Shown: positions 4,870 to 31,590, counted from the first letter of the stretch. The stretch is DNA of 32,000 nt from Sulfolobus acidocaldarius DSM 639 (GCF_000012285.1 NC_007181.1:390001-422000), one strand, 5' to 3'. Numbers and translations are program-made. Notes: generated by a model not told the origin, from the letters alone.

Positions 4870-4913
4870 CTGACTTCCTCTCCCGCCTTGAAAGGCGAGG
4901 CTTTCCTCATCTT
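4870..4913 (-). repeat. Hairpin unit of the IS200/IS605 (tnpB) end family (PATE/REP-like)
   Basis: ctgacttcctctcccgccttgaaaggcgaggctttcctcatctt. The LE side is followed by gtaa (TTAC on the unit strand). Confidence 0.7.
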
Positions 4914-7623: not shown

Positions 7624-7637
7624 CATTAGGTGAAAGA

Positions 7638-9005: not shown

Positions 9006-9027
9006 CCTCCCGTTTGTCCCCACACTG

Positions 9028-9954: not shown

Positions 9955-9955
9955 A

Positions 9956-10609
9956 TTATTTACACCTCACCCTTGCAAGATATTCTACGAACGATTGATA
10001 ATACCCCTTTATTATAACTCTGAGTTCAGTGATATTTTTCCAAAACTTGACAGGTATGATATAGTACTGACTTTTCGCACCATATTCGTACTCATTTAAT
10101 CTAATCTTATTCTGCCCATAGAGATTAAGGATAGAGAGTGCTACGATTAATTTCAATTTATCTTCTCTATCGTTATAGTGGATAAAAATTGTTCTTCCCA
10201 ACACATCAAATTCTTGCGCAACCCAAACTTTGGTAGATAATACTGCATAGATAGGTTCACCATATCTTTGCTCTGACTGTTCTTCAGTCCATGAAGATCC
10301 TGTTGTGTCAATAAACAGCCCAGGCCAGTATCTGTCTTCCCCGTTCTCTTTATAGTGATAATAAATCGTGAAGTCGTATTTGTCTAAGACGTCTTTGTAG
10401 TAGTCGTGATTAATAACGCTCGTCAGCGTACCTATACCAGTCCTCCTAAGGTAAATATTATCTGGAATTAGGCCCTTTTCCTTCCACTGTTTTAACTTAA
10501 TGTGAAGTAGCCCGTAGATTAGGTACTCCCTACCTAGGTGCTCGTTTGGGACCTCAAAGCCGTCAAAGTTAGAGTTGGCCCAGTACCTTTGCTTGAAATC
10601 AGTTGACAT
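9956..10609 (-). CDS. Hypothetical protein (217 aa), immediately upstream partner of the DndC-like gene
   Basis: The ORF ends 1 nt before the DndC-like start codon. No motif recognised. Confidence 0.65.
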   Translation of the reverse strand: MSTDFKQRYWANSNFDGFEVPNEHLGREYLIYGLLHIKLKQWKEKGLIPDNIYLRRTGIGTLTSVINHDYYKDVLDKYDFTIYYHYKENGEDRYWPGLFIDTTGSSWTEEQSEQRYGEPIYAVLSTKVWVAQEFDVLGRTIFIHYNDREDKLKLIVALSILNLYGQNKIRLNEYEYGAKSQYYIIPVKFWKNITELRVIIKGYYQSFVEYLARVRCK

Positions 10610-11099: not shown

Positions 11100-11420
11100 T
11101 TACTCATCTGGCTCACCCCATCCGTCAAACGTTATACCCTGATTCTCTTCTTCCCTTAGTAGTTCTCTTCTATGTCTCTGATAGTAGTTATATAGCTTCA
11201 AAACATGTTTGCAGAGCATCCCATATGAAGATGCCTCACAAGAGCACGAAAACCTTAACCAAGAACCGTTAAGTATGAGCATAGTATGATGATATAGGCC
11301 GTCTCTACTTTCACTCCTTATATCAGCACTTATCTCTATAACGCCCTGCTGGTCCTTCATCACTTTTAAGATATTAATGTCTTTATGTGGTTGGGTCCTT
11401 ATCGTAAGTTGATTGCTCAC
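11100..11420 (-). CDS. SWIM-type zinc-finger protein (106 aa)
   Basis: FSCSCEASSYGMLCKHVLKLY fits the CxCx(n)CxH SWIM signature. Confidence 0.65.
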   Translation of the reverse strand: MSNQLTIRTQPHKDINILKVMKDQQGVIEISADIRSESRDGLYHHTMLILNGSWLRFSCSCEASSYGMLCKHVLKLYNYYQRHRRELLREEENQGITFDGWGEPDE

Positions 11421-11770
11421 TCTTCCTCACCCTCAGCCTTAGCCTCCTTTTCTAATTCTGCTGAAACTTCTAACAGCTTCTTTGCCTTCTCTTTCAAGAG
11501 CTTTGCTAAGAATTTCTTCGCCTGGGTGTTATCGTTTACCAGCTCTAATACCCTGTCATCAGATAAATGAATAGCCCCAGAGGCTAACTTGTAGTAGGCT
11601 GGCTTACTTAATTCCCCAGCCTCGATCAAGCTCCAGAAGTAGTCCTCAAATGCTGTAAAGATCTCTTCCCTTTCCTCCTTAGTCAAGCTCGAAATCGCAT
11701 ATAAAAAAAGATCAGAACTTTGCTCCCCTTGGAACTGGGGAGTTTTCCTCTCAACTACTTGGGTGGACAT
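11417..11770 (-). CDS. Acidic helical protein, first gene of the operon (start revised to the internal Met)
   Basis: The track ORF runs 11417..11848, but its first 26 codons cover the TATA box and both operators. The ATG at 11770 is preceded by gaggt (SD-like) about 10 nt upstream. Confidence 0.55.
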   Translation of the reverse strand: MSTQVVERKTPQFQGEQSSDLFLYAISSLTKEEREEIFTAFEDYFWSLIEAGELSKPAYYKLASGAIHLSDDRVLELVNDNTQAKKFLAKLLKEKAKKLLEVSAELEKEAKAEGEEE

Positions 11771-11787
11771 TTTTGTATTACCTCTAT

Positions 11788-11837
11788 CTTCTATTGTAGA
11801 AGGTGGCTTATAAATCTTTTGTCTTCTATTATAGAAG
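11788..11837 (-). promoter_or_regulatory. Promoter with two palindromic operator-like sites flanking a TATA box
   Basis: CTTCTAttgTAGAAG (11788-11802) and CTTCTAttaTAGAAG (11823-11837) flank cttataaatc (11807-11816). Confidence 0.55.
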
Positions 11838-11889
11838 GTAGATTTCACTTTCAGTTAAGCGTCTTATGTCTTTAATCCTTTTGTATAAT

Positions 11890-12024
11890 ATGGTGACGAA
11901 GGACTACTACTTGGGGGCGAAGTATGTTATCCTAAGATTAAGGGAAAGCCTAGCAACAAAATTAGACGATAAGACTTATATGATTCTGGAAGAAGAGTTG
12001 ACTAAAATTGGAAAAAGAGCTTGA
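11890..12024 (+). CDS. Small ORF (44 aa), possibly RHH-like, divergent from the operon
   Basis: Hand translation gives MVTKDYYLGAKYVILRLRESLATKLDDKTYMILEEELTKIGKRA. No strong motif. Confidence 0.3.
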   Translation: MVTKDYYLGAKYVILRLRESLATKLDDKTYMILEEELTKIGKRA

Positions 12025-12057
12025 CTTGAAGTTTTACTTTTCTGAAAAACATTATGA

Positions 12058-12366
12058 TTAACGGATTTGGGTAAGCTTTTCAAATCCTATCTCTTTCATG
12101 AGCTCTAGTAACTTCTTTCCCTTGTCTGTGAGAGACACGAGCGTGCTCCTCCCTTTCTCTTCGTACTTTATTAGGCCCAGCGCTAGCAAGTTCTTCTCGA
12201 TCGTATTGTAATATATTCCAGTGCTGACATTCGCCGCCTCCCACAGCTCACTGAGGGTTCTCGGCTCTTCTAACGCTAGTAGTACCCTGTACAAATGTTC
12301 ACACCTTAAGGGGTTTGAAAGATCCCTAGGCATATTTCCTCTACTATTTACTAATGTGTAACTCAT
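12058..12366 (-). CDS. Small winged-helix (wHTH) regulator, paralog A
   Basis: 102 aa. ...LSELWEAANVSTGIYYNTIEKNLLALGLIKYEEKGRSTLVSLTDKGKKLLELM shows the HTH, wing and TxKG pattern. Confidence 0.7.
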   Translation of the reverse strand: MSYTLVNSRGNMPRDLSNPLRCEHLYRVLLALEEPRTLSELWEAANVSTGIYYNTIEKNLLALGLIKYEEKGRSTLVSLTDKGKKLLELMKEIGFEKLTQIR

Positions 12367-12461
12367 AGTTCAGATACTTTTTCATACGCCATAAAAAGTT
12401 TTGAGTATATCATGTATTATAAAATTTTTATAATATTGCTTCTATAGTAGAAAATAAGGAA

Positions 12462-12758
12462 GTGAAAATGAGAGAGTTGAGTAACCCAGTGAGATGTGTT
12501 CACCTATACCTTATCTTGAAACATGTTCAAAGCGAAATATCGTTAAATGAACTCTATACGAAGACGAGGATCGCGTCTAGTGCTTTCTATTACACTGTCA
12601 TACCAACAATGCTAAAATTAGGCTTAATTGAAATAAGCTACGAGAATAGGAAGAAAATCATAAGGCTCACCGAGAAAGGAAGAAAGCTCCTGGAGGTCCT
12701 TAACGATATTGAGTTCGAGAAGGTAATAGCAAAAGAGGCTTTGGTTGTAACGCCATGA
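12462..12758 (+). CDS. Small wHTH regulator, paralog B (GTG start), divergent from A
   Basis: 98 aa, colinear with A (LSNPxRCxHLY...LGLI...LTxKGxKLLEx...FEK). Confidence 0.7.
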   Translation: MKMRELSNPVRCVHLYLILKHVQSEISLNELYTKTRIASSAFYYTVIPTMLKLGLIEISYENRKKIIRLTEKGRKLLEVLNDIEFEKVIAKEALVVTP

Positions 12759-13321
12759 CGCCCCCTACTCCTTCTTCTTCTAATAATAATATTATGAATA
12801 GTATACTAGTTAGGTCAGAGAAGATAGCGAAGATGTTGCTCAGGCTAGTTCAAGGGCCTGCATTAGCTAGAGAGTTAGCACAACTGATAAACACAACGTC
12901 AAACGAGGTCTACCCCAGGCTGGAAAGGTACATCTTTAAGGGGCTAATACAAAAGGCCAGGACAATCAACAGGCTCAACATTTATTCTTTGACTGAAAAA
13001 GGGAAGCAGCTGCTATTTCTTAGCAAGGGGTCTGACTTTGAGGAGGTAGTAAAGAAGGCTGAGAAGAAATTAGGAAGGAACCTGGACGAGGAAGAGAAAG
13101 AGGTTCTAAGAGTATTTTACGAAGAGAAAGGGTACATTGAGGCATCATCGACTGAGAGCGTTGCAGAGAAGGTCTACTATAAACTGAAAGGAAAGGTCAA
13201 GCTGTACAGGATTGAGCAGATACTAGACGATCTGACCAGCAATCACATTATTTTCGGGTTCAGGCCTAACAAGAGAAGCCTTGTGATGAAGGCCAAACTC
13301 GATAGGGATCTCTTGCACTAG
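12755..13321 (+). CDS. wHTH protein with a C-terminal extension (188 aa)
   Basis: LARELAQLINTTSNEVYPRLERYIFKGLIQKA...SLTEKGKQLL. It overlaps paralog B by 4 nt. Confidence 0.65.
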   Translation: MTPPTPSSSNNNIMNSILVRSEKIAKMLLRLVQGPALARELAQLINTTSNEVYPRLERYIFKGLIQKARTINRLNIYSLTEKGKQLLFLSKGSDFEEVVKKAEKKLGRNLDEEEKEVLRVFYEEKGYIEASSTESVAEKVYYKLKGKVKLYRIEQILDDLTSNHIIFGFRPNKRSLVMKAKLDRDLLH

Positions 13322-13416
13322 TTCTTTTACGTTAAACAAACACCTAATTCTATGCACTCTTTTTCTCACTTTTGTAATAAAAATTCAAAGTACGTCATTC
13401 TTTCTCGCTAATTCAG

Positions 13417-13431
13417 TTAACTCCCCAGTTT
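13417..13431. repeat. Solo MITE terminus (ttaactccccagttt)
   Basis: Lies about 65 bp left of the complete MITE, in the same orientation as its left end. Confidence 0.45.
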
Positions 13432-13483
13432 ATATGAAAGAAATAAATTGAATAAAAGTGACATAGATCCTATCTTTTTTGTA

Positions 13484-13809
13484 AAAACTCCCCAGTTAAA
13501 TGAGAAAAATTATAACTGAAACAAATACAACTACTATTATTACTACTACTAACTGAAAAACAAACAAAACTCAAACAAACAAACACAAACTTTTACACTC
13601 ATTTTTACGCTTGCTAATTTACTATAATTATTAGACTAATTCAATTTTTTACATTTTTTAGAAATTTTTTAATGACGTTAAGATGACGTTAGGGCTCCGT
13701 CAAGCCTTAGAGAGCCTGGGCCCAAGGCTACTTAACTGTGCCAATGGCCAAACTGTGAGTAGTAGTTAATAATGCTAGCTGAATTTCTCTCAGTAAACTG
13801 GGGAGTTTT
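13484..13809. mobile_element. Non-autonomous MITE-like element (~325 bp) with long terminal inverted repeats
   Basis: The left end is aaaactccccagttaaatgagaaaaatt...actactattattactactact. The right end is gagtagtagttaataatg...gaatttctctcagtaaactggggagtttt. It has no ORF and a CAAA-rich interior. Confidence 0.7.
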
Positions 13810-13916
13810 CCTTAGGGCTTGAACCACAGATGTGACCATTTTCTCTGCCCTCGGTAGATATGGCCTAAACTTTAAGATTTATTAACATTATATGTATTAT
13901 GTAGAGTGGAACATCC

Positions 13917-14216
13917 ATGGAAATCAAGATTAATGAACAGCTCTTCGAGTTGTTATCAACAGAAATGAAGTTCGTCTTGTACGTAGGGCTGTTGAAAGAG
14001 CCCACCTTAAGCGAGCTTAGGGATGCTACTAGGGCGAGCTGGAGTACAGTGCACAACATTGTCCCTAAGCTACAAGGCTTGGGCCTGATAGAGGTCCAGG
14101 AAGAGAAGACGAGGGTAAAGAGCGTAAAGAAAATAGCCAAACTAACAGACAAGGGCCGCATGGTCTTTGAGAAGATTCTAGAGTTAAACCAGCTCCTCTC
14201 AGAAGACAAAGCATGA
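13917..14216 (+). CDS. Small wHTH regulator, paralog D
   Basis: 99 aa. TLSELRDATRASWSTVHNIVPKLQGLGLIEVQEEK...KLTDKGRMVFEKI. The antisense ORF 13865..14209 is low-complexity and rejected. Confidence 0.7.
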   Translation: MEIKINEQLFELLSTEMKFVLYVGLLKEPTLSELRDATRASWSTVHNIVPKLQGLGLIEVQEEKTRVKSVKKIAKLTDKGRMVFEKILELNQLLSEDKA

Positions 14217-14225
14217 ATAGGCGTC

Positions 14226-14513
14226 TTACGAGCTCGATAAAGACTTCGAGGCTTTTTTCATTTCGACGATCCTTTCAATCTCAACTAATAATTGAGCGAC
14301 CTCTTTCCCGCTCTCTGTCAATATTACGAACCTGCGGCGTGGGAACGAGTGCTCTCTTTCTTCATTAACGAGGCCTAACTTAATCAAATGTTCTAATGAG
14401 GGGTTAAGCACAGAAGTGGACGAGTGTGAGGCGTCAACCAGCTCTCTAGCTGTCATCTTGTCCTTCTTTAATAATGCCTTGAGAATCCTCTGCTCTACTT
14501 CTGACAGCTCCAT
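14226..14513 (-). CDS. Small wHTH regulator, paralog E
   Basis: 95 aa. LSEVEQRILKALLKKDKMTARELVD...LIKLGLVNEEREHSFPRRRFVILTESGKEVA. It is a close paralog of 17482..17775. Confidence 0.7.
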   Translation of the reverse strand: MELSEVEQRILKALLKKDKMTARELVDASHSSTSVLNPSLEHLIKLGLVNEEREHSFPRRRFVILTESGKEVAQLLVEIERIVEMKKASKSLSSS

Positions 14514-14609
14514 GTATTATGTATTGGTAATCGTTACTTTTGAAAATATGTAAGTAGTTTCGTTAACCGTTAAACGAAACATTTCTAATTAGTACCGGCC
14601 GATCCTGGA

Positions 14610-14711
14610 TTAGGACTGAAGCAACTCATTGATCATTAATATGTGCTTTATGATGTCTACTCCTTTCTTGGTGACCTTAACTAGTTTCTTCTCTGTCCCT
14701 ACCGAAGTTTT
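14610..14711 (-). pseudogene. C-terminal part of a split wHTH gene (paralog F)
   Basis: Translates as KTSVGTEKKLVKVTKKGVDIIKHILMINELLQS*. It joins in frame to 17430..17242. Confidence 0.75.
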
Positions 14712-14762
14712 GGTGACAAAAAGACGACAAGCCTCGCCCTTTTAAGGCGGGGAGGAGGTCAG
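14712..14762 (+). repeat. Hairpin unit (PATE/REP-like) forming the left end of the composite block
   Basis: ggtgacaaaaagacgacaagcctcgcccttttaaggcggggaggaggtcag. Confidence 0.7.
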
Positions 14763-14865
14763 CTTGAATGTCAATAAAATGACAGGGATGACAGTGTAGG
14801 GACAAACGGAAAGGACGAAGTTAAGGAAACAGAAACAATCAAAATCCTTTAATTGAATATAAGAT

Positions 14866-15324
14866 GTGATAGTAATGGTAGAACAAATAATTGAGTTTCC
14901 GGACGTCATGAAACAACACGAGACATATACATTACCAGATGTCATCACGGATCCTGACGGCAAGCCAATAATGTACCCTAAGGAAGAGATAGGTAAAAAC
15001 CCAATAGTGGTCAATAGGAAGAACTGGAGGCTATTTGCAAACTTCGACCTTGTACGGAGTAAAGGCAAAGAGATAGTGGTCAGAATCAAGACGACCGGGC
15101 AATTAGTGAGAATACGTGACATGGATGCGGCGACTGTAATGTACTACGTCGAAAGGATAAAGCCTGGTGCAACAGTGCATGAGGCTATAACTTATGATAT
15201 CCAAAAAACTATCGAGGAAACTGGTGATTTTGAAGAAGACGGCGAGTTTATGTTCTATATGTGGCAGTTGTTCGTCGTTCTCTCATACCTCATCCAATAC
15301 GGCGTCCTCATCCTCGTCAAGTGA
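14866..15324 (+). CDS. Hypothetical protein with a hydrophobic C-terminal tail (passenger gene)
   Basis: 152 aa with normal charged composition and C-terminus FMFYMWQLFVVLSYLIQYGVLILVK. The antisense ORF 14742..15122 is rejected. Confidence 0.55.
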   Translation: MIVMVEQIIEFPDVMKQHETYTLPDVITDPDGKPIMYPKEEIGKNPIVVNRKNWRLFANFDLVRSKGKEIVVRIKTTGQLVRIRDMDAATVMYYVERIKPGATVHEAITYDIQKTIEETGDFEEDGEFMFYMWQLFVVLSYLIQYGVLILVK

Positions 15325-15582: not shown

Positions 15583-15888
15583 ATGTCCGTAGAGTTCAAC
15601 TTAACCCTTAACCAAGTTAAGGTAAAGGGAAGTGTCTTTTCTCTAAACCCCTACTCTTTTGAAGCGATAAAGAGGTGGTATGACAAGTTCCTAAAGTGGT
15701 GTGAGAACTATGACGTCATGACGTACTGCCAGAAGGACATGGAAGAGGAGGTAGAGTACTTAGCTGAGGCTTTCAGACTGTTAGCCCCTAAGAGCTTAGA
15801 GGAGGCTGAAGAATATTTCGCCGTCTTGGAAAGGGCTTACGACTCTACTGAGGGTAAGATAAAGGAAGTGTTTGTTAGGGCTATGTAA
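15583..15888 (+). CDS. Hypothetical acidic protein (101 aa, passenger gene)
   Basis: ORF with normal composition. Its stop lies inside the conserved gtaaaggtttttt motif that marks the tnpB element's left end. Confidence 0.55.
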   Translation: MSVEFNLTLNQVKVKGSVFSLNPYSFEAIKRWYDKFLKWCENYDVMTYCQKDMEEEVEYLAEAFRLLAPKSLEEAEEYFAVLERAYDSTEGKIKEVFVRAM

Positions 15889-17224
15889 AGGTTTTTTGAG
15901 GAGTAATGGGCGAAGGAAAGTGAAGAGGAGTAATATAGTTAGACTAGTTGTCTCGAAGGACGTGGGCAAGAAGTTGAGGGAGCTAGCAACATGGACTGCC
16001 AAGTGTTGGAACGAGGTTAACTGGTTGAGGATGCAACAGTTCAAGGAAGGGAAGATGGTGGACTTTAACGACACTGAGAAAGTAGTGTACGCTAAATACA
16101 AGGAGTACTTAAAGGTAAATGCCCAACAAGTGTGTAGGAAGAACGCCGAGGCATGGCGTTCCTTCTTCTCGCTAATGAAGGACAAGAAAGACGGTAAGTT
16201 GCCTAGCTGGTTTAAGCCTAGACCACCAGGGTATTGGAAGGATAAACGTGGTAGCTACAAACTGTTAATACTAATCAGAAATGATAGGTATACAGTAGAC
16301 GAGAACGCTAGAACAATTTATCTGAAGGACTTTGGGTTAACACTTCACTTCAAAGGCAAGCTTAAGTGGAAGGGCAAACAAGGAAGGTTAGAGATATTCC
16401 ATAATGGACTACATTGGTGTGCATCTATACCAGTTGAGGTGGAGGTTAACGCTAAGCCCAAAGGTAATGGTATAGCTGGAGTAGATTTAGGTATTGTTAA
16501 CTTGGCTACTGTAGTGTTCGATGATAGCTCGTGGGTGTTGTTCAAAGGTGGTTCTGTACTATCAGAGTATGAGAACTACTCTAGAAAGATTGCAATTACG
16601 CAGAAAAAGTTGTCATTGCATAAGCAAGAGAGGAGTAAGAGGTTGAAGGCGTTGTTTCTAAAGAGGAAGAGGTTCTTAAAACACGTGTTGAACTCTATGG
16701 CTAGGAAGACTGTAGAGACTGCTTACGAGAAAGGAGTATCGATAATTAAGGTCGGGTATCCCAAGGAAATATCAAAACACCACGGGAATAAGCTCACTGT
16801 AAACTTCTGGAACTACAACTACGTTATTAGGAGGATGCAAGAGGTCTCAGAGGAGTACGGCATCAAAGTCGAAACGGTGAACGAGGCTTATACTTCAATT
16901 GTGTGTTCCCTATGTGGGGAAGCCCATGAAAATGGGCGTATACACCGTGGTTTGTTTAAGTGTCCCCACATAGGGAAAGTCGTTAACGCAGACTTGAACG
17001 GGGCGATAAACATCCTACATATCCCCAAGTCCCGAGGAGGGTGGAGTGAGGGTAACTCCACCAAAGGGATAGGGGTAAAATGGCTGAAGACCCAGCCAGT
17101 GGTCTACCACTGGACGAGCGGAGCGGGGTGGGTGTTTAAATCACCCACTAGCTGTGAAGCGATGGGAATGAAGGTGGTGAACCACAGACCTGTGAACCGC
17201 CCTAGGGGAACCCTCACCCTTTAG
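15872..17224 (+). CDS. tnpB: TnpB (IS200/IS605-family RuvC-like RNA-guided nuclease), apparently intact
   Basis: GVDLGIVNLATV (RuvC-I Asp), VETVNEAYTS (Glu), the zinc-finger region CSLCG...CPH, and NADLNGAINIL (RuvC-III Asp). The real start may be GTG 15920. The last ~70 codons read through the RE/omega-RNA region. Confidence 0.85.
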   Translation: MLGLCKGFLRSNGRRKVKRSNIVRLVVSKDVGKKLRELATWTAKCWNEVNWLRMQQFKEGKMVDFNDTEKVVYAKYKEYLKVNAQQVCRKNAEAWRSFFSLMKDKKDGKLPSWFKPRPPGYWKDKRGSYKLLILIRNDRYTVDENARTIYLKDFGLTLHFKGKLKWKGKQGRLEIFHNGLHWCASIPVEVEVNAKPKGNGIAGVDLGIVNLATVVFDDSSWVLFKGGSVLSEYENYSRKIAITQKKLSLHKQERSKRLKALFLKRKRFLKHVLNSMARKTVETAYEKGVSIIKVGYPKEISKHHGNKLTVNFWNYNYVIRRMQEVSEEYGIKVETVNEAYTSIVCSLCGEAHENGRIHRGLFKCPHIGKVVNADLNGAINILHIPKSRGGWSEGNSTKGIGVKWLKTQPVVYHWTSGAGWVFKSPTSCEAMGMKVVNHRPVNRPRGTLTL

Positions 17225-17241
17225 GGCGGGGAGGAGGTCAG
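16995..17241 (+). ncRNA. Predicted omega (re)RNA scaffold of TnpB, overlapping the tnpB 3' end and the RE hairpin
   Basis: Placed by analogy with characterised TnpB systems. The same ~230 nt are conserved in the tnpB-less derivative at 28875-29110, which supports a non-protein function. The 5' limit is approximate. Confidence 0.45.
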
Positions 17242-19514: not shown

Positions 19515-19557
19515 AAAGTGACGAAAGCCTCGTCCTTTAGGGCGGGGAGGAAGTCAG
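19515..19557 (+). repeat. Hairpin unit (PATE/REP-like)
   Basis: aaagtgacgaaagcctcgtcctttagggcggggaggaagtcag, preceded by ttac (19511-19514). It lies between convergent genes. Confidence 0.7.
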
Positions 19558-21378: not shown

Positions 21379-22086
21379 ATGTCTTTAACAGTAGAACTTA
21401 GGAATTCTATTGAGCAAGTTTACTTGTTTAAGCCAAGTGGAGTACAATTACGGTCATTGGGGATTCCTCAAGACTATGTAAAAAAGGTAGATGAAGAGAT
21501 AAAGAAGTTACTTGACGATGAGGAGTTAAAGAACGGCACGTTAGAAGTGATGTCTGGTCTGTTTAGCTATTTAACGACACTAGATATTGACGATCTTACT
21601 AAGATAGAGGACTTCATGAAAAAATACCCAGCGAAATTACAACAGCTTGATAATCTTTATAAATTATTAGAGAACCTCCCTGCTGAGGAGTATAAGGAGT
21701 ATTGGCTAGGCAAATATTATGGGCTACTGGACAAGCTTGTGAAGGCGAAAGAGGAGTTCATGAGGACCATTGAAGAGAGGGAGGGGGTTAACACCATAAT
21801 GGAGTTCTACTACAAGGTCTTCCTAGGACTGTTAACTGACCTAGTAGAGAACATTAGGCGTTACGAGACAGTAGAAAGGTTAAAGGCTAGAGATGACGCA
21901 AAGCTGAGAGCTTTAATGTCAACGACAAATACTCTCATATTTGTTCTTTCTTACCCCATAATTGCATACTTGGAGGGGGATAAATTAGATTATGAAATCC
22001 TAACTTACCTGATAACCATTTTTGCTAAACCTTCCACAATTAAGGATAAGTACAGTGAGATTATAGGTGAGGCACTTTTTGGATAA
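21379..22086 (+). CDS. All-helical hypothetical protein (235 aa), upstream partner of the PIN-like gene
   Basis: The ORF overlaps the downstream gene by 20 nt. Confidence 0.55.
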   Translation: MSLTVELRNSIEQVYLFKPSGVQLRSLGIPQDYVKKVDEEIKKLLDDEELKNGTLEVMSGLFSYLTTLDIDDLTKIEDFMKKYPAKLQQLDNLYKLLENLPAEEYKEYWLGKYYGLLDKLVKAKEEFMRTIEEREGVNTIMEFYYKVFLGLLTDLVENIRRYETVERLKARDDAKLRALMSTTNTLIFVLSYPIIAYLEGDKLDYEILTYLITIFAKPSTIKDKYSEIIGEALFG

Positions 22087-22927
22087 ATGTTTTGCATTAG
22101 ACACAAATATACTCCTTGATTACTTCTATGACTTTATGGATAAGAATAGGCATCTACAAGCCGAAAAACTAGTCAAAAGTTTGAAGGGTAGGTCCTCCGA
22201 GATTTACATACCCAATACAGTGAAGACTGAAGTTCTTGAAATAACAGCTGGGTCCTTTGCAATATTAAGAAATTCACTTATATTGGAAATGCAGAAGATT
22301 AATTGGGATAACCTCTCTATAGAAGAACGAGATAAAGCACTAGATAGGATTAGGGATAACTTTGATGAGCTGTTTGAGAATACACGAAAGAAGCTTTATC
22401 CTGATACTACTCCAGGCATCAGGTTGTTCCTCGCAAAGAGGCTTTTCTCTAAACTTCGTAATGAGCTTATAAATAGAAGGCTGTCAGAAATTAAAGATTT
22501 TGTACTTACAGAGAATAGGATAAAAGATTCAGAAGAATATTTAATTCGCAGAATATCTAATGAGTTTTCATTATTTCCTAGTTTAATATCTATCAGTAGT
22601 TCTTCTGAAGAGCTTATGAAGTTGAATATATTTATGCGTGCGTTTGGAAAAGTAAAAAACATAGGCCTTATTGACTCGACACTCTTTTCTGAAATTTTTC
22701 TGGCGTTAAAGGGTGGTGTTTGTGAAAGTATAACTCTTATAAGCAATGACTATGACTTAGCCACAATAAAGGAATCTCTCTTAAATAACTTAAATGATTT
22801 CATAAAATCTAGCAGTAACAACGATCATAGGAATTACGCTGAAGAGATGAGGGACCTAATTCATTCTAATTTGAAAGTTGTAAAGCTAGAAGAAATATTA
22901 AATAAGCTGGCCTCATCACCTACATAA
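22067..22927 (+). CDS. PIN-like nuclease domain protein with a ~130-aa internal insertion (GTG start)
   Basis: The N-terminus has FALDTNILLDY (first Asp) and TEVLEI (Glu). The C-terminus has GLIDSTLF and LISNDYDLA (third and fourth Asp). Confidence 0.55.
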   Translation: MRHFLDKCFALDTNILLDYFYDFMDKNRHLQAEKLVKSLKGRSSEIYIPNTVKTEVLEITAGSFAILRNSLILEMQKINWDNLSIEERDKALDRIRDNFDELFENTRKKLYPDTTPGIRLFLAKRLFSKLRNELINRRLSEIKDFVLTENRIKDSEEYLIRRISNEFSLFPSLISISSSSEELMKLNIFMRAFGKVKNIGLIDSTLFSEIFLALKGGVCESITLISNDYDLATIKESLLNNLNDFIKSSSNNDHRNYAEEMRDLIHSNLKVVKLEEILNKLASSPT

Positions 22928-22981: not shown

Positions 22982-23086
22982 TTAATAGTCGTTTTGGCAC
23001 TTTTCATTACAATATGTGAATTTCGGCCAATTATATTCGTCTGCTAGTTTTGTTATGGTCTTTTCCTTTTCATCTTTTGTCTTCAT
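22982..23086 (-). CDS. Possible small ORF (34 aa) coupled by an ATGA overlap to the upstream gene
   Basis: Hand translation gives MKTKDEKEKTITKLADEYNWPKFTYCNEKCQNDY. The only support is the 4-nt start/stop overlap. Confidence 0.25.
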   Translation of the reverse strand: MKTKDEKEKTITKLADEYNWPKFTYCNEKCQNDY

Positions 23087-23667
23087 AAAATTCTCGATAT
23101 CTTTGCATTTTTTATCTCTCTGATTAATTGGCACATCTTCTTCAGGAAACAGAAGTAGTCGCCCTCATTGACCCTACTATATGACTTACGTATGTAATGC
23201 TCAGCTATGCATCTATCCCACATCACAAAGAAGTTTGGAAAAAGTATATGCAGTATTTTCGATGTAGCAGTTGGGCCAACTCCTTCTATATTATCCAGAC
23301 GTCTGTATGCCTTCTTAATTATATCTTCATATTTTTCAAGATTCTCATCTTCGCATAGTCTTTTGTTAGAAAGGTCTTTCAATAAATCGAACTTGATATA
23401 TCTTATCTCACTTGCAAGTTTATCTTCGCTTTCGCTAATGTCACTTGCACTTAAAACGTGCCAGCTCTGCAGGAATTTGATTAACTCCTGCGCTGCTGTT
23501 TTAGAGTTTACTTCATCATTCTCATTTCTAATTTTCTCTACAGCATCTAAGGCTCTAAAATACGCTTTATCATCACGTCTAAAACAACAACGCCATATTT
23601 TAAGATACTCCTTAAACTCTTCACAATTTGGTATATCGACTTTTTCAGAGCATTCCTCATTAGACAT
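23083..23667 (-). CDS. Hypothetical protein (194 aa) with an HhH-like GVGPTATSKILHILFP segment
   Basis: ORF with normal composition. The antisense ORF 23207..23692 is rejected. The motif assignment is weak. Confidence 0.55.
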   Translation of the reverse strand: MSNEECSEKVDIPNCEEFKEYLKIWRCCFRRDDKAYFRALDAVEKIRNENDEVNSKTAAQELIKFLQSWHVLSASDISESEDKLASEIRYIKFDLLKDLSNKRLCEDENLEKYEDIIKKAYRRLDNIEGVGPTATSKILHILFPNFFVMWDRCIAEHYIRKSYSRVNEGDYFCFLKKMCQLIREIKNAKISRIL

Positions 23668-23892: not shown

Positions 23893-24879
23893 CTATTTTT
23901 CTTTTTCCTCAGCTTGGTTGGTCTCTAACAGAGATCTGACCTTTTCTTCTACCTCAGAAATATATTCGTCAAACTCGTCCGACTTATAGAGCTTACTTAT
24001 TTCTTTTTTAAGCTCTACCAAGTTTTCTAATATTTCCTTCTGATGATCTTTTACATCTTTCAAATACTCCCAATCTTCATCAGTTCTACCCTTAGTAAAC
24101 CTCTTTATGTAAGCGTTTGTCAAAAACGCTGTATAAAGAAGGTAATCAAACAACTTTTGATTACCAAGGTCTAGCATGCTCAGTATTTGGTCTAGTAGGT
24201 AAGGTTCATCTATGAGTGTAGAGATTATCAGTTTTTGCTCATCAGACAATTGCTTACAGTATCCCTCAGCCTCCTCTGGTGGTGAAAGTAAGCACAATCT
24301 CATCAAGTTAAGTATTCTATCGTTTAGATTCCTCAGACTGAAACTATTTACTAAATCCTTTCTAATATTAAGCAATTCGTCATATCTTCTTTTCTCAGGT
24401 GGTTTAGTTATATATTCCTTTACTCTTCTATATAACCTTCCTAGTTCTCGTTGTTTTAGCTCAAACATCAGCTTGCTAGTCGTAGATAGAAGTTCAGCTA
24501 TATGGGACTTCCCTATAGGGTCATGTTTAAGTTTTTCCGCAATTTTCTCTTCATTTACAGCGTCCTTTACTAAGTTGGTAAAGCTGTTTATGACATTCTG
24601 AACTAGCCTAGGGAACCTTAAGTGGGCTTTATTACTAACAGAGATAATAGAGACGGGGAGTAGTATTAATACCCCATAGCCGGCCAAAAAAGCCTTAGAG
24701 AAATTCTCATAGGAAGACGCTATGTCCTCTATCTTTTTTTCCTCCAAAGCTTCAACATCTGTTATCTCGCTGGCCTTGGTTTTAAGGTACTCATAAGTGG
24801 CTATCGCACCTTCTGCGTTCTTAATTGCATCCCTAATATAACTGTAAAACAGAGACTTCTTCCTGCTAGGCTGACTCAG
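23893..24879 (-). CDS. Helical protein with one TM segment, cassette 1 partner; the canonical start is lost
   Basis: The track ORF starts at TTG 24747. Homology to the paralog 25699..26682 continues in frame up to 24879, where CTG replaces the paralog's TTG start. The TM-like segment is FLAGYGVLILLPVSIISV. Confidence 0.55.
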   Translation of the reverse strand: MSQPSRKKSLFYSYIRDAIKNAEGAIATYEYLKTKASEITDVEALEEKKIEDIASSYENFSKAFLAGYGVLILLPVSIISVSNKAHLRFPRLVQNVINSFTNLVKDAVNEEKIAEKLKHDPIGKSHIAELLSTTSKLMFELKQRELGRLYRRVKEYITKPPEKRRYDELLNIRKDLVNSFSLRNLNDRILNLMRLCLLSPPEEAEGYCKQLSDEQKLIISTLIDEPYLLDQILSMLDLGNQKLFDYLLYTAFLTNAYIKRFTKGRTDEDWEYLKDVKDHQKEILENLVELKKEISKLYKSDEFDEYISEVEEKVRSLLETNQAEEKEK

Positions 24880-24881
24880 CC

Positions 24882-25328
24882 TTATTTCCCTCTCAATATC
24901 TTATCCCGTATAATGGAGTAACTGGTATACTCAGGATAACGATAATAGACGTATTTTAAAATCTCGCTCCTACTTTTCCTTACCCACTCCCTAAAGAAGT
25001 CCAATACTTTTTTGTCTACTCCCTTTATTTCCATGTCTTTAGCTAATACATATTTCCTCCTCACTCCTACCACAAAGCCAGTTATCATATCCTCCACCGG
25101 GTCTTCCTCCACGCTCACTATTCCTGCGTCAATAAGCTTGTTTATTTTATTTTGCAGATACTCAGAGTAAGGGCCAAAATAAAAAGGCTCAAATCCTAAT
25201 CCTAAATCAACACCTCCTTCCTTTTCTAACAAAAAGAATATCTTCTGGAGCTTTGTAGCAGTTACCTCAGCATTTTCCTCCTTTGCCACCTTAAGGAGGG
25301 CAAGGATGTAATTGTCAACAGTGTCCAT
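24882..25328 (-). CDS. Panacea/SocA (DUF4065)-like putative antitoxin, cassette 1
   Basis: TATKLQKIFFLLEKEGG...FEPFYFGPYSEYL resembles the recalled DUF4065 pattern (KLQKLLYy...f.aw.yGPv). The start is set at MDTVDN, as in the paralog. Confidence 0.55.
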   Translation of the reverse strand: MDTVDNYILALLKVAKEENAEVTATKLQKIFFLLEKEGGVDLGLGFEPFYFGPYSEYLQNKINKLIDAGIVSVEEDPVEDMITGFVVGVRRKYVLAKDMEIKGVDKKVLDFFREWVRKSRSEILKYVYYRYPEYTSYSIIRDKILRGK

Positions 25329-25472
25329 AAATGCCACCAACTAAAATATAGTTTACACTTTAAGCATTTATTTTTTAATACGGGGTCTTCATCGAAACTA
25401 AATAGAAAACTATGGAGTTAATTTAACACCTCATCCAAATCCTTTTTATACACTCCCAATGAGTTTACACAT

Positions 25473-25625
25473 ATGAAGATTGAGAAGAGAGAGGGTGAAG
25501 AGGAAGTAGACATAATCTTTGAGAGCAAGGAAGATCTAGAGGAGTTTAGACAACTACTTATTAAGAAGTATTATGAGCTTAATCCCGACCGCAAACCTCC
25601 TTATGGGACCCAATCCTCCAGATAA
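25473..25625 (+). CDS. Small acidic ORF (50 aa) divergent from cassette 1, not in the ORF track
   Basis: MKIEKREGEEEVDIIFESKEDLEEFRQLLIKKYYELNPDRKPPYGTQSSR. It is conserved with 27271..27429. Confidence 0.45.
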   Translation: MKIEKREGEEEVDIIFESKEDLEEFRQLLIKKYYELNPDRKPPYGTQSSR

Positions 25626-25642
25626 TCATGAACAGTTTTCGT

Positions 25643-25690
25643 CTGGCTTCCTGCCCGCCCTGAGGGGCGAGGCTTGTCTCATCTTTGTCA
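25643..25690 (-). repeat. Hairpin unit (PATE/REP-like) at the junction of the two cassettes
   Basis: ctggcttcctgcccgccctgaggggcgaggcttgtctcatctttgtca. Confidence 0.65.
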
Positions 25691-25698
25691 GAAGCTTC

Positions 25699-26682
25699 CT
25701 ATTTTTCCTCATCTTGGTCAGTCTTTAGCAAAGACCTAGCCTTTTCCTCAATATCAGCTAAGACTTCGTCAAACTCATCGTTGTACGCTATTTCATATAA
25801 GGCATCACTAACGTGTTTTAGGTTATCAAGCATCTCTTTTTGGTGATCCCTAAGTTCTTCTAAGTATTTTTCGTCCACATCTTCCCTACCTTCGGAATAC
25901 GCAGCAATCCCGCTTGCGGCATGCGCTAAATATGCCGTATATAGTAGAGTGTCGAGGAGCTCATATACGCCTAAATCCATTATGCTTAGAATTTGATCCA
26001 AAAGGTAAGGTTTATCTAACAAAATTTTCAAAACTTTCTTATCCTTTTCGCTCAGTGCCTGACAGTATTCAGCAGACTCTTCAGGATAGGACAGTAAGCA
26101 TTCTTCCAATAGGGAAGTTACCTCATTGCTTAACTCTCTAAGCGTAAATGAAACTGTAATTTTCTTTCTTAGGTCTTGAAGTTCTTTATAATTTCTATCT
26201 TTGGGAGGCTTCTCTATGAATCTATTTATATCGTCAAACAGTTTCTTTAACTCGGTCTGCCCCAGTTCATTTAACAACTCGCTAGAGGCTCTAAGTAGTT
26301 CCACTATCTTAGATCCTCCTACAGGGTCGTGGCCCAGCTTTTTCTTTATGACCTTAGGCGAAGTTCCCTGCCTAATTAACTCTCTAAAAGAGTTCTCTAT
26401 TCTCTGAAGATGTCTAGGAAACCTCAGATTAGCATTTGAATTCACAGAAAATATTGCAACTGGTATAAGTATAATAGTGCCATAAGTAGAAAGCAAAGCC
26501 TTTGAGAAGGCCTCATAGGCCCTTGCTATACTAAACATCTTTTTCTCTTCGAGAGAACGGACATCCTTTACCTCTTCAGCCTTGTTTTGTAACCTATCAT
26601 ACGCCGCTTGGGCCTCTTCAAAAAAACCTATGCCATCTCTAACAAAGTTGTTAAAGATCGACCTCTTCTTACGCGTTCCCAA
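25699..26682 (-). CDS. Helical protein with one TM segment, cassette 2 partner (TTG start)
   Basis: 327 aa with LLSTYGTIILIPVAIFSV. It overlaps the upstream Panacea-like gene by 14 nt. Confidence 0.6.
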   Translation of the reverse strand: MGTRKKRSIFNNFVRDGIGFFEEAQAAYDRLQNKAEEVKDVRSLEEKKMFSIARAYEAFSKALLSTYGTIILIPVAIFSVNSNANLRFPRHLQRIENSFRELIRQGTSPKVIKKKLGHDPVGGSKIVELLRASSELLNELGQTELKKLFDDINRFIEKPPKDRNYKELQDLRKKITVSFTLRELSNEVTSLLEECLLSYPEESAEYCQALSEKDKKVLKILLDKPYLLDQILSIMDLGVYELLDTLLYTAYLAHAASGIAAYSEGREDVDEKYLEELRDHQKEMLDNLKHVSDALYEIAYNDEFDEVLADIEEKARSLLKTDQDEEK

Positions 26683-27130
26683 TAAGTTTTCCCCTAATCA
26701 CCTTATCCCTTATTACAGAGTATCTAGTGTAGTCAGGGTAACGTCTGTAAACGTAAGTTAGTATTTCCTGTCTGGGCTTGGATACCCACTCCTTGAAGAA
26801 CTGTATGATTTCATTCCTTACATTATCCACTTTGACGTCATTTGCTAGTACATACTTCCTCTTTATGCCTATGGTGAGCCCTGATATGACGTCTTTGACC
26901 TCTTCTTCCTCAACGTCGACCATACCGAGCTCAATCAGACTGTTAATACGGTCTTGGAGTAGCTTTGAGTATGGTCCAAACAACCATGGTTCAAAGTTTA
27001 GACCTAGATTAACTCCTCCCTCCTTTTCTAACAAAAAGAATATCTTCTGGAGCTTTGTAGCAGTTACCTCAGCATTTTCCTCCTTTGCCACCTTAAGGAG
27101 GGCAAGGATGTAATTGTCAACAGTGTCCAT
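26669..27130 (-). CDS. Panacea/SocA (DUF4065)-like putative antitoxin, cassette 2
   Basis: 153 aa. TATKLQKIFFLLEKEGG...FEPWLFGPYSKLL. Confidence 0.55.
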   Translation of the reverse strand: MDTVDNYILALLKVAKEENAEVTATKLQKIFFLLEKEGGVNLGLNFEPWLFGPYSKLLQDRINSLIELGMVDVEEEEVKDVISGLTIGIKRKYVLANDVKVDNVRNEIIQFFKEWVSKPRQEILTYVYRRYPDYTRYSVIRDKVIRGKLIGNA

Positions 27131-27270
27131 GAGTATATCACCAACTAGATGTTTTCATTTTAAGTATTTATTTAAAGATGGAGTCTTCCTCAAAACTAAA
27201 TAGAAAACTATGGAGTTAATTTAACACCTCATCCAAATCCTTTTTATCCACTCCCAATGAGTTTACATAT

Positions 27271-27429
27271 ATGAAAATAGTAAAGAGAGAAGGTGAAGAG
27301 GAAACTGACATAATCTTTGAGAGCAAGGAGGAACTTGACAGATTTTTTGACGAGCTTATTAAGGAAGCTGAGGAAAGGGAAAAGGCTAGAAGTAAACCTT
27401 CTCATGAGGATAATTCGTTAAAGTTTTAA
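27271..27429 (+). CDS. Small acidic ORF (52 aa) divergent from cassette 2, not in the ORF track
   Basis: MKIVKREGEEETDIIFESKEELDRFFDELIKEAEEREKARSKPSHEDNSLKF. Confidence 0.45.
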   Translation: MKIVKREGEEETDIIFESKEELDRFFDELIKEAEEREKARSKPSHEDNSLKF

Positions 27430-27451
27430 GTATAGAAGATAAGAATAATAG

Positions 27452-27524
27452 TGGGGCGGGTCAGCCTAGGTGGACTCTTCATCGGATCTGCGTGTCAGCC
27501 ATTCATCACCAGACCCCGCCCCGC
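27452..27524 (-). ncRNA. Candidate C/D box sRNA (2'-O-methylation guide)
   Basis: The minus strand reads GGGGCGGGGUCUG-GUGAUGA-AUGGCUGACACG-CAGA-UC-CGAUGA-..-CUGA-CCCGCCCC. It has a perfect C box and D box 38 nt apart, degenerate D' and C' boxes, and a GC terminal stem, all inside an AT-rich spacer. Alternatively it is two degenerate RE tails. Confidence 0.4.
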
Positions 27525-27610
27525 CAATTCTACTTCTGTAAAAACACATTTGAAAATCTTTCGCTTTCTTATTTTTATTATCTTTAATATCGTGATTGTA
27601 ATAATATTAC

Positions 27611-29241
<1,631 letters not shown>

Positions 29242-31550: not shown

Positions 31551-31590
<40 letters not shown>

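Follow-up and report, generated by a model that had tools for sequence, protein, structure and literature searches.

Organization of the duplicated locus

The window, i.e., the whole 32,000-nucleotide stretch of Sulfolobus acidocaldarius DNA that was analysed, contains two tandem minus-strand units, each consisting of a gene A, a gene B and a divergent ORF of about 50 residues (C). The features of the locus are listed below.

23893-24747, minus strand: B1 (P0127, AAY79903), 284 aa from TTG in its annotated form, unit 1 paralogue of B2
24748-24879, minus strand: 44 codons upstream of B1 and in frame with it, beginning at CTG and homologous to the N-terminal end of B2
24882-25328, minus strand: A1 (AAY79904), 148 aa from ATG, Panacea/DarG-CTD-like winged-helix protein
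25219-25328, minus strand: 110-bp tract of unit 1, identical to 27021-27130, covering A codons 1-36 plus 2 nt (helices 1 and 2)
25329-25472, no strand assigned: A1/C1 intergenic region; the 66 bp next to A have diverged and contain indels, a TATA-like ATTAAAAAATAAAT and a Shine-Dalgarno-like GGTGG
25473-25625, plus strand: C1, 50-aa acidic ORF
25643-25690, plus strand: copy of a dispersed hairpin repeat of about 45 nt, core CCCGCCCTGAGGGGCGAGGC at 25654-25673, between the convergent C1 and B2
25699-26682, minus strand: B2, 327 aa, all-helical, hydrophobic segment at residues 62-80
26669-27130, minus strand: A2, 153 aa, Panacea/DarG-CTD-like, with a 14-nt overlap with the B2 start
27021-27130, minus strand: 110-bp tract of unit 2, identical to 25219-25328
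27131-27270, no strand assigned: A2/C2 intergenic region; TATA-like CTTTAAATAAATAC and GGTGAT Shine-Dalgarno-like motif for A2; includes 27193-27247, identical to 25395-25449
27271-27429, plus strand: C2, 52-aa acidic ORF

The tandem duplicated cassette with exact shared tracts, first noticed in a sequence-only reading of this DNA, is real, as the ORFs, the alignment and independent genomes agree. MAFFT alignment of the two units returned an overall nucleotide identity of 59%. The protein identity of the paralogues, originally put at roughly 60%, is not uniform: the two A proteins are identical at 69% of positions (at 57-59% once the converted part is set aside), the two B proteins at 47%. The identical two-unit arrangement recurs in independent complete S. 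acidocaldarius genomes and in one metagenome contig, thus ruling out an assembly artefact. Since unit 2 is nearer to a Metallosphaera copy than to unit 1, the duplication is old and not a fresh tandem copy, and the two units are old paralogues.

In unit 1 a CTG at 24879-24877, 2 nt beyond the A1 stop, occupies the position of the unit 2 TTG start. The homologous B1 frame stays open up to 24900, and no canonical start precedes the upstream stop at 24901-24903. The 44 upstream codons reported as open and homologous were borne out as such, with 17 of 43 residues identical to B2, the remaining protein showing 48% identity. In the ORF listing, the A1 frame reaches further, to a TTG at 25340.

The C ORFs are short, divergent and acidic as described, with pI values of 4.9 (C1) and 4.75 (C2). 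The 5' half of C2 is 80-86% identical to C1 in 50-bp windows and its 3' half is unrelated. C1 is related to ORF22 of the rudiviruses SIRV8 and SIRV9 (phrog_30262) and the remaining C relatives are rudivirus ORFs. The proposed three-gene cassette holds in this locus only, whereas the other A-B loci lack C, except that Sulfolobales archaeon HS-7 has a copy in a different position. C does not belong to the conserved module; it is a mobile-element gene in its own right, sharing the promoter region by chance in S. acidocaldarius. Likewise, the hairpin reported at the cassette junction exists but is not cassette-specific, because it is one of seven copies of the dispersed repeat in the window; in a 73-nt context it folds no better than shuffled sequences (z = -0.3).

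Protein A is a divergent relative of Panacea antitoxins

A had been proposed to be a Panacea/SocA-like protein. A2 matched PF13274 (DUF4065) with 13.8 bits and an E-value of 0.11, short of the Pfam gathering threshold of 25.7 bits; A1 gave no PF13274 match in Pfam, and a precomputed Pfam domain is recorded on none of 120 listed A homologues. PF13274 is a recurrent weak match within the family, occurring in 23 of 34 members (E<=1) with a best E-value of 4.5e-4. A tblastn search with an A-family member retrieved haloarchaeal plasmid genes named by PGAP 'SocA domain antitoxin' and 'DUF4065', and both encoded proteins pass the PF13274 threshold (26.7 and 29.8 bits). The 152-aa protein of pHSR2-01 is a genuine PF13274 member (26.7 bits), and hhalign matched the A-family profile to it over 128 columns with a probability of 98.1% and an E-value of 9.4e-14. 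The similarity to DUF4065 is thus present, though Pfam's threshold is not reached.

The C-terminal domain of DarG emerged as the top match in both sequence and fold. NCBIfam models returned DarG (positions 171-297, E 1e-6) and SocA (E 0.02), while PADLOC gave, with PDC-M19A (5e-13), a match to a candidate defence protein, as well as matches to DarG (4e-8) and to a Type I S-subunit C-terminal fusion (2e-8). In a profile search of the PDB the best match was DarG in its complex with DarT (DarTG, chain 7yk3_B, E 0.016), the alignment being anchored on QK..YF...F.P..YGPYS. The AF2 model of A (pLDDT 87.6) consists of six helices and a beta-hairpin, and Foldseek with this model again placed 7yk3 at the top (E 7e-4), with the winged helices of PadR, MarR and RTP next; no PanA structure was found among its PDB matches. 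The Panacea fold itself has a central helix packed among other helices, plus a small beta-sheet. DarG is the nearest structural match, a remote one with a TM-score of 0.36-0.43 and 14-15% identity.

Residues K26, Q28, K29, F31, F32, F51 and G52 are invariant in 34 A sequences, and P53 and Y54 nearly so. Panacea domains are described as having a conserved central helix and a GPV signature motif (PMC8832971), whose counterpart in A is FGPYS, with GPY instead of GPV, as in DarG. A was thus shown to be a divergent member of the Panacea/DUF4065 superfamily resembling the toxin-binding C-terminal domain of DarG. We describe it as a divergent relative and not as a PF13274 member because its score lies below Pfam's own threshold; for the same reason Pfam-based surveys, e.g., the Panacea census, probably missed the A-B pair.

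Protein B is a lineage-restricted helical protein

The AF2 model, hydropathy and family searches agree with the initial description of the 327-aa partner, which is helical throughout, has a single TM-like segment and contains no motif that could be recognised. The single hydrophobic 19-mer (residues 62-80, Kyte-Doolittle 2.0-2.2) is borderline for membrane insertion, with a Hessa sum of +1 to +1.6 kcal/mol in B1 and B2, and the all-helical model is weak there (pLDDT 45-74). The segment could instead be a buried core helix. Residues E57, K61, L64, H118 and L252 are invariant in the family. Relatives outside its own family were not detected, and family, profile and structure searches found neither a DarT or other family match nor any resemblance to a toxin, enzyme or pore former already known. 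A ClyA-type alpha pore-forming toxin was considered, ClyA, Hbl and Smh being the top Foldseek rows, and was rejected at E-values of 0.1-0.8 and TM-scores of 0.14-0.17. These data show that the B proteins form a small all-helical family, restricted to their lineage, in which one hydrophobic segment containing proline is conserved.

A and B are coupled and co-evolving partners

The expected conservation of A and B as neighbours holds across Sulfolobales. B lies directly downstream of A in both window units and in loci L002, L004, L005, L006, L026, L027 and L028, and at L001 and L017 the two are separated only by an IS, so that, insertions aside, the order is maintained in 11/11 loci inspected, even where B identity is 26-29%. 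The start and stop of the two genes overlap by 14, 4 and 1 nt, and the pair conforms to the type II toxin-antitoxin layout of adjacent, co-directional, usually overlapping and conserved neighbours. In two further lineages A and B are fused (P0153, P0154), and three assemblies show the fusion ORFs to be uninterrupted. The tree of A is congruent with that of B, and the pairwise identities correlate (r = 0.73). A and B were thus shown to be translationally coupled neighbours that co-evolve and are fused into one polypeptide in two lineages.

B is split, truncated, IS-disrupted or start-less in 5 of the 11 loci (unit 1, L002, L004, L006 and L001), a sixth, L017, carrying an IS between A and an intact B, while A is intact in every cellular locus. 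A also occurs without B in AFV3, AFV8, SMV2, SYV1, L003 and L025, the SMV2 and SYV1 copies being truncated or frameshifted, and is far more widespread than B (at least 176 clusters versus 17).

Plasmids of S. tengchongensis carry homologues, as do integrated plasmid-like elements near traG, and public records name A and B 'conjugal transfer protein' or 'conserved conjugative plasmid protein'. TraG/TrbE-type transfer genes are present near L001 and L003. They are absent from the window and from the surroundings of L026 and L027, so a constant association with the conjugation apparatus fails. At L026 and L027 the intact pairs form isolated two-gene islands, with no conjugation genes nearby, among housekeeping genes (between S-layer/TmcA genes, and among sugar-nucleotide genes). 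Distant A homologues in Bathyarchaeia lie, by sequence inspection, beside AbiE-like genes, followed by genes for a 2-TM protein and a nuclease-like protein.

A putative mobile toxin-antitoxin-like module

The explanation that we favour, with moderate confidence, is that A and B of each unit, arranged in this order in a bicistronic operon, make up a mobile toxin-antitoxin or addiction module of a type II-like (Panacea-type) kind. A would bind B directly and keep it inactive, and B would be a growth-inhibiting effector, acting either on the membrane through its hydrophobic helix or as an enzyme with the invariant E57/K61/H118. Modules of this kind would be spread by the conjugative plasmids of Sulfolobales and by integrated elements, and would also exist as stand-alone islands of two genes. 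With the start codon of B1 lost, unit 1 may be on its way to a state in which only the antitoxin is left, and the solo A of lipothrixviruses and other viruses might serve as decoy antitoxins. The location of pairs among housekeeping genes, the repeated loss of B, the solo A genes and the wider spread of A resemble the behaviour of a selfish module and were counted in favour of this reading. Panacea antitoxins pair with many unrelated toxins, membrane disruptors included (PMC8832971), and the CapRel family of toxin-antitoxins comprises fused as well as unfused members (PMC9712102).

Other observations weigh against a toxin-antitoxin function. With 327 aa, B exceeds the size of classical type II toxins; fusion and co-evolution show partnership, not antagonism; the predicted winged-helix part of A would fit a plain DNA-binding regulator equally well; and the degradation of B could simply mirror the decay of integrated elements. 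On the same side stand the lack of any match between B and a known toxin, the sub-threshold PF13274 score of A, the borderline hydrophobic segment of B, and the position of plasmid-borne pairs near traG together with the database names.

Among known systems, the pair resembles PanA-PanT (PF13274; Kurata et al. 2022, PMC8832971) in the antitoxin-type domain of about 150 aa, with its conserved central helix (TKLQKIFFLLE) and GP[VY] motif, in the position of A upstream of and overlapping a non-homologous partner gene, in its carriage on mobile elements and in the membrane-spanning segments of some partner families. It differs in the sub-threshold Pfam score and GPY motif of A, in a partner that belongs to a 327-aa helical family seen nowhere else and is no more than a candidate toxin, and in its Sulfolobales hosts (plasmids, viruses and islands), natural fusions and virus-borne solo A. 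The C-terminal domain of DarG (DarTG; PDB 7YK3), which binds and inhibits its toxin directly, shares the F.P..YGPYS motif with A. A DarTG system was rejected, as A aligns to DarG only at positions ~165-297 in NCBIfam and PADLOC and lacks the N-terminal macrodomain, and B is not a DarT ADP-ribosyltransferase. Like CapRel(SJ46) (PMC9712102), A-B occurs both as a two-gene pair and as a fused polypeptide, but the domain order is reversed, the antitoxin-like A being N-terminal, and the domains are unrelated.

A doubtful but serious alternative is that A and B form a non-toxic complex with an accessory role in conjugative plasmids and viruses. A would then be a winged-helix DNA-binding regulator or adaptor and B its structural or scaffolding partner, serving plasmid transfer, segregation or the control of replication. 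The database names of both genes point to it, as do the PadR, MarR and RTP-like fold of A, the plasmid section-C-like genes at 11-15 kb of the window and the TraG-like genes a few kb from the pair or from A alone in pHGQ25 and a Stygiolobus element; pTC1 ORF142, beside traG, may be a further homologue (PMC4390865), and the fusions are compatible with any obligate complex. However, the 'conjugal transfer' name has no underlying NCBIfam model, and A is carried by viruses, which do not conjugate. The isolated islands, the window devoid of TraG or TrbE and the repeated inactivation of B with retention of A also argue against this alternative, and the specific relatives of A are antitoxin domains, not generic regulators. 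Compared with pNOB8-type Sulfolobales conjugative plasmid backbone genes, with which it shares the plasmid and traG-proximal locations, the pair also occurs without conjugation genes, and a link of either protein to DNA transfer was not found.

Less probable still is a dedicated antiviral abortive-infection system, in which A would act as both B inhibitor and sensor of viral proteins, as in fused CapRel, the viral solo A being counter-defence decoys. It is suggested by the PDC-M19A and DarG matches, by solo A in four archaeal viruses, by the CapRel-like fusions, by the AbiE-like neighbours in Bathyarchaeia and by the abundance of defence-like and mobile genes around the pair in the window (HerA/NurA-like, a viral/archaeal nuclease, a PIN-like protein and TnpB). 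However, PDC-M19 is itself only a candidate system, two of the viral A copies are damaged, and this alternative overlaps with the toxin-antitoxin reading to the point that sequence alone cannot separate the two.

To our knowledge, few toxin-antitoxin or abortive-infection modules have been characterised in Crenarchaeota beyond VapBC-type and HEPN/MNT-type pairs. The A-B pair, currently mislabelled 'conjugal transfer protein', is found widely in Sulfolobales, on plasmids, in viruses and in genomic islands. If B is a toxin, it would represent a new family of effectors, available in a model archaeon that is genetically tractable, and provide a testable case of virus-encoded antitoxin decoys in archaea.

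Gene conversion between the two units

The exact runs shared by the units measure 110, 55, 23 and 19 bp, the 55-bp tract (25395-25449 and 27193-27247) comprising the TATA-like box of C and an imperfect palindrome, AACTAAATAG-N4-CTATGGAGTT. At a background identity of 62-70%, the probability of a 110-bp run is 1e-23 to 1e-17, and uniform high identity therefore does not account for the tract. Between units, synonymous changes in A drop abruptly at the tract boundary from 37/65 codons to 0/36. Among the five closest orthologues, 12-15 of the 27-33 amino-acid-identical codons within codons 1-37 are synonymously changed, and variation between species in this part is on par with the rest of the gene.

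Gene conversion and selection on a cis or RNA element had both been put forward for the identical tract, and only the former stood. Selection on a nucleic-acid element (RNA structure, operator or recombination site) is very improbable, even though the tracts combine the beginning of a winged-helix gene with the region upstream of that gene and the 55-bp tract lies between divergent promoters with its 10-bp imperfect palindrome, because synonymous sites vary freely between species, the within-genome drop is abrupt and the upstream regions of orthologues lack similarity to the 55-bp tract.

A broader and rather unlikely proposal would join these observations: B would found a new archaeal toxin/effector class, silenced by its Panacea-like partner and released onto the membrane or another essential target through E57/K61/H118, the solo A of AFV3 and AFV8 would be counter-defence decoys, and the two paralogous modules would be co-regulated because gene conversion maintains identity in their A N-termini and in the operator region that they share. 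The tracts themselves are an ordinary case of intragenomic gene conversion, a clean example of homogenisation between paralogues.

Organization of the Tandem Cassettes

Each of the two tandem paralogous units contains a Panacea-like gene of about 150 codons (A), a gene for a helical partner (B) and a small, divergent, acidic ORF (C), arranged as follows.

Genes of the two units (window positions)
23893-24747, minus strand: B1, unit 1, 284 aa from TTG
24882-25328, minus strand: A1, unit 1, 148 aa
25473-25625, plus strand: C1, unit 1, 50 aa
25699-26682, minus strand: B2, unit 2, 327 aa
26669-27130, minus strand: A2, unit 2, 153 aa
27271-27429, plus strand: C2, unit 2, 52 aa

The ORF coordinates and the alignment of both units confirmed the duplicated cassette noticed in the sequence-only reading, and the window holds no A or B copies beyond the two units. 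GenBank entries AAY79903-AAY79908 (Sulfolobus acidocaldarius DSM 639) and entries from other strains matched A2, B2, B1, A1, C1 and C2 exactly. The start of B2 overlaps A2 by 14 nt. In unit 1 a CTG, located 2 nt past the A1 stop, occupies the site of the B2 TTG, and the B1 frame past this CTG comprises 44 open codons that are 40% identical to B2, versus 48% in the remaining protein. Motifs resembling TATA boxes and Shine-Dalgarno sequences were identified by visual inspection, a bacterial promoter/terminator scan being set aside because the host is an archaeon.

Protein A Resembles Panacea and DarG Domains

Pfam would give A no PF13274 call: in direct searches A1 had no SocA_Panacea match and A2 reached 13.8 bits, below threshold. 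Across the A family, PF13274 was the sole recurrent Pfam match, occurring in 23 of 34 members. NCBIfam aligned A to DarG positions 171-297 (E 1e-6), the SocA match being weak, and PADLOC returned PDC-M19A (5e-13), DarG (4e-8) and a Type I S-subunit C-terminal fusion (2e-8). The A profile found as its top PDB match the DarG chain of the M. tuberculosis DarTG complex, with the conserved motif aligned; the same chain was the best structural match of the AF2 model (pLDDT 87.6, pTM 0.80), followed by winged helices of the PadR, RTP and MarR types. An A-family member also matched two haloarchaeal plasmid genes, named by PGAP as a SocA-domain antitoxin and a DUF4065 protein. Both haloarchaeal proteins lie above the Pfam PF13274 threshold, and hhalign aligned the A profile with one of them end to end (98.1% probability, E 9e-14). 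The GPV signature of Panacea (PMC8832971) corresponds to the invariant FGPYS of A. We conclude that A belongs to the Panacea superfamily as a divergent lineage whose motif is nearest to that of the DarG C-terminal domain; the earlier description of A as Panacea/SocA-like is thus upheld by the hhalign alignment, the recurrent sub-threshold PF13274 matches and the DarG match in the PDB.

Distant A homologues were found in Bathyarchaeia and a Gammaproteobacteria MAG (contigs L007 395-1548, L009 5920-8650 and L010 3282-6050), each followed by a protein of about 185 aa with C-terminal TM helices and weak STING_TM/SLATT-like matches. In the bathyarchaeal contigs L009 and L010 a protein of about 555 aa with a weak restriction-endonuclease-like N-terminus comes next, L007 ending before this point, and in L009 the genes adjoin others that are AbiE-like by eye. 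This arrangement may be a separate candidate system.

Protein B Defines a Lineage-Restricted Helical Family

Only 41 relatives of B emerged when 1.84 billion representative proteins were exhaustively searched with a profile. The expectation of an all-helical protein with one TM-like segment held: the AF2 model is all-helical (pLDDT 74, pTM 0.77), and residues 62-80 form a single hydrophobic segment, conserved in the family and carrying a nearly invariant proline, with Kyte-Doolittle values of 2.0-2.6 and a borderline predicted insertion energy. Residues E57, K61, L64, H118 and L252 are invariant across 17 diverse members. B had no match in Pfam, NCBIfam, PADLOC or PHROGs, and none was consistent across these 17 members; the sequence-profile search of the PDB gave no match, and Foldseek of the model yielded no significant match in either PDB or BFVD. 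The HEPN-type Rx4-6H motif, sought by eye in the B alignment, was absent. The pore-forming toxins ClyA, Smh and Hbl head the structural list but with E values of 0.1-0.8 and a TM of about 0.15, and were discounted.

Linkage of A and B and Nature of the Module

The survey of the pair in other archaea suggested by the sequence-only reading found an A homologue directly upstream of B in every case with readable context.

Loci with an A-B pair
Window: pair present twice
L001, pHGQ25: B interrupted by a TnpB element (5732-6892)
L002, Sulfolobales archaeon HS-7: B in two pieces
L004, M. javensis: B truncated
L005, Acd1: B intact
L006, M. yellowstonensis: B truncated at an insertion
L017, Metallosphaera tengchongensis: TnpB inserted between A and B (6762-7910)
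L026 and L027/L028, metagenome contigs: A-B pair

The B proteins of L026, L027 and L028 are just 26-29% identical to B2, and in L026 and L027 the pair has S-layer/TmcA and sugar-nucleotide genes as neighbours, conjugation and mobile-element genes being absent from the vicinity. A and B are naturally fused in two family members, P0153 and P0154, which are encoded by uninterrupted ORFs in three assemblies. A is much the commoner gene, with at least 176 clusters versus 17 for B, and stands alone in a plasmid-like element of Stygiolobus (L003), in a metagenomic mobile element (L025) and in the viruses AFV3, AFV8, SMV2 and SYV1, being truncated or frameshifted in the last two.

An antitoxin-type domain encoded upstream of a lineage-specific partner gene, and overlapping it, the stand-alone two-gene islands, the coexistence of fused and unfused forms, the recurrent loss of B where A is kept, and the orphan viral A make a mobile toxin-antitoxin-like module the best fit, a reading to which we give about an even chance. 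Known Panacea antitoxins are paired with many unrelated toxins, membrane disruptors included, and CapRel, like the A-B family, includes both fused and unfused forms. If B is a toxin, it might act on the membrane or as an enzyme. The main rival, a non-toxic complex of a regulator and its partner belonging to conjugative plasmids, is implied by the database names, but the window contains no TraG or TrbE, the pair is also found outside plasmids and A is carried by viruses; we regard this explanation as rather unlikely. A module dedicated to abortive infection against viruses is slightly less probable still; on sequence data, this variant cannot be told apart from the toxin-antitoxin-like module. 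The earlier interpretation was largely on target. The pair is a candidate Panacea-type system whose partner family is new and which a misleading annotation has obscured.

The A-B cassette has a TnpB element (IS200/IS605 OrfB) next to it or within it in three independent genomes, namely the window, pHGQ25 and M. tengchongensis. In the window, the element flanking unit 2 spans 27900-28895 on the plus strand, and a long GC-rich hairpin (27451-27525) is located between C2 and the TnpB gene. The 3' end region (17016-17241) of the first TnpB gene (15872-17224) recurs inverted at about 28874-29093, directly after the second TnpB gene, with about 90% identity.

Age of the Units and Origin of the Identical Tracts

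Neighbour-joining trees of A (residues 38 onward) and B gave the same topology, (unit 1, (unit 2, M. tengchongensis)), and pairwise identities of the two proteins were correlated (r = 0.73, 21 pairs). B2 shares 70% identity with the protein from Metallosphaera but only 47% with B1. Both the topology and the closeness of B2 to Metallosphaera argue that the units are old paralogues or separate acquisitions, homogenised later at one end; a recent tandem duplication was rejected, since unit 2 groups with M. tengchongensis before unit 1.

The MAFFT alignment showed the units to be 59% identical overall in nucleotides, with two exact runs, one of 110 bp (25219-25328 = 27021-27130) and one of 55 bp (25395-25449 = 27193-27247). 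The former begins precisely at the A start codon and spans codons 1-36 plus 2 nt. Compared with each other, A1 and A2 do not differ at all in codons 1-36, while codons 38-148 show synonymous changes in 37 of the 65 amino-acid-identical codons and 46 non-synonymous codons. Over the first 37 codons, the five closest orthologues (M. tengchongensis, HS-7, Stygiolobus, Acd1 and M. yellowstonensis) differ synonymously in 12-15 of 27-33 identical-residue codons, and three more distant ones (pHGQ25, M. javensis and AFV3) in 10-15 of 20-24. These codons are thus free of nucleotide-level constraint between species, and the 55-bp tract has no similarity in the upstream regions of A orthologues. Given this free synonymous variation and the unlike upstream regions, the tracts are products of recent intragenomic gene conversion, an ordinary case. 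Of the two origins first proposed, gene conversion therefore stands, and selection on a cis or RNA element is ruled out by the interspecies synonymous variation. Identity passes from 100% to about 70% with indels, back to 100% and then to 80-86% into the 5' half of C, a mosaic that suggests more than one conversion event.

The 55-bp tract also holds an imperfect palindrome, AACTAAATAG-N4-CTATGGAGTT, which might serve a dimeric winged-helix protein as operator. Its conservation does not extend to other species. In the Logan contigs L019 (1832 bp) and L020 (1828 bp), B2, C1, the A1/C1 intergenic region and A2 are joined into a cycle, which in L019 measures 1,802 bp, one repeat spacing, with a 30-nt terminal overlap. 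The cycle probably arises where the de Bruijn graph loops through the 110-bp tract; an actual circle of unit length, or a triplication, is less likely.

The C ORF and the Dispersed Hairpin Repeat

C is probably a real gene, because gene callers predict it in independent records and C1/C2 substitutions favour third codon positions (9 of 15). C1 matched phrog_30262 (E 5e-12) and is 55% identical to ORF22 of the rudiviruses SIRV8 and SIRV9 (SIRV9 ORF22, L024 2477-2635); a database search with C2 returned itself only. At the other A-B loci no C-like ORF was found upstream of A. The sole clear C homologue beside an A-B pair belongs to HS-7, where it follows B in the same orientation, and M. tengchongensis has a weak C fragment. 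C was consequently rejected as a conserved third member, and the three-gene cassette originally described reduces to a two-gene module.

The hairpin reported at the junction of the units is indeed present, with an unexceptional local fold. It is not cassette-specific, being a copy of a dispersed repeat of about 45 nt, CTGACYTCCTC-CCCGCCCTAAAGGGCGAGGCTTTC, with seven copies in the 32-kb window and none expected by chance.

Copies of the hairpin repeat
4882-4901
17211-17230, minus strand
19527-19546, minus strand
25654-25673
27623-27642, minus strand
28886-28905
31562-31581

At least three copies (19527, 25654 and 31562) closely follow the end of a gene that is oriented like them, and the repeat may be a terminator-like or a MITE/IS-derived element.

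Other Genes of the Window

The interval 5689-10609 encodes a 644-aa HerA-like ATPase (DUF87) and a 455-aa NurA-like protein; on the opposite strand there follow genes for a protein with a PAPS-reductase domain and for a viral/archaeal nuclease (PF12187, E 2.5e-107). This region, beside tRNA-Ser (5126-5217), may be a defence or mobile-element cluster. Several ORFs at 11100-15324, among them a 188-aa PadR-like protein (12755-13321), resemble section-C-type genes of Sulfolobales conjugative plasmids, such as precede A in L001, L003 and L005, and the window appears to contain a rearranged integrated plasmid remnant. Beside unit 1 (21379-22927 and 23083-23667 region) lie an overlapping gene pair for proteins of 235 aa and 286 aa, the latter with a weak PIN-like N-terminus (PIN_12, E 8.5e-4), and a gene for a 194-aa DUF6308-like protein. 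Saci_0478 and Saci_0483 have been described as UV-induced "conserved conjugative plasmid proteins", and YtrA overexpression has been described as having an indirect effect on Saci_0484 (PMC6101591, PMC6746942); all three may be genes of the A-B locus.
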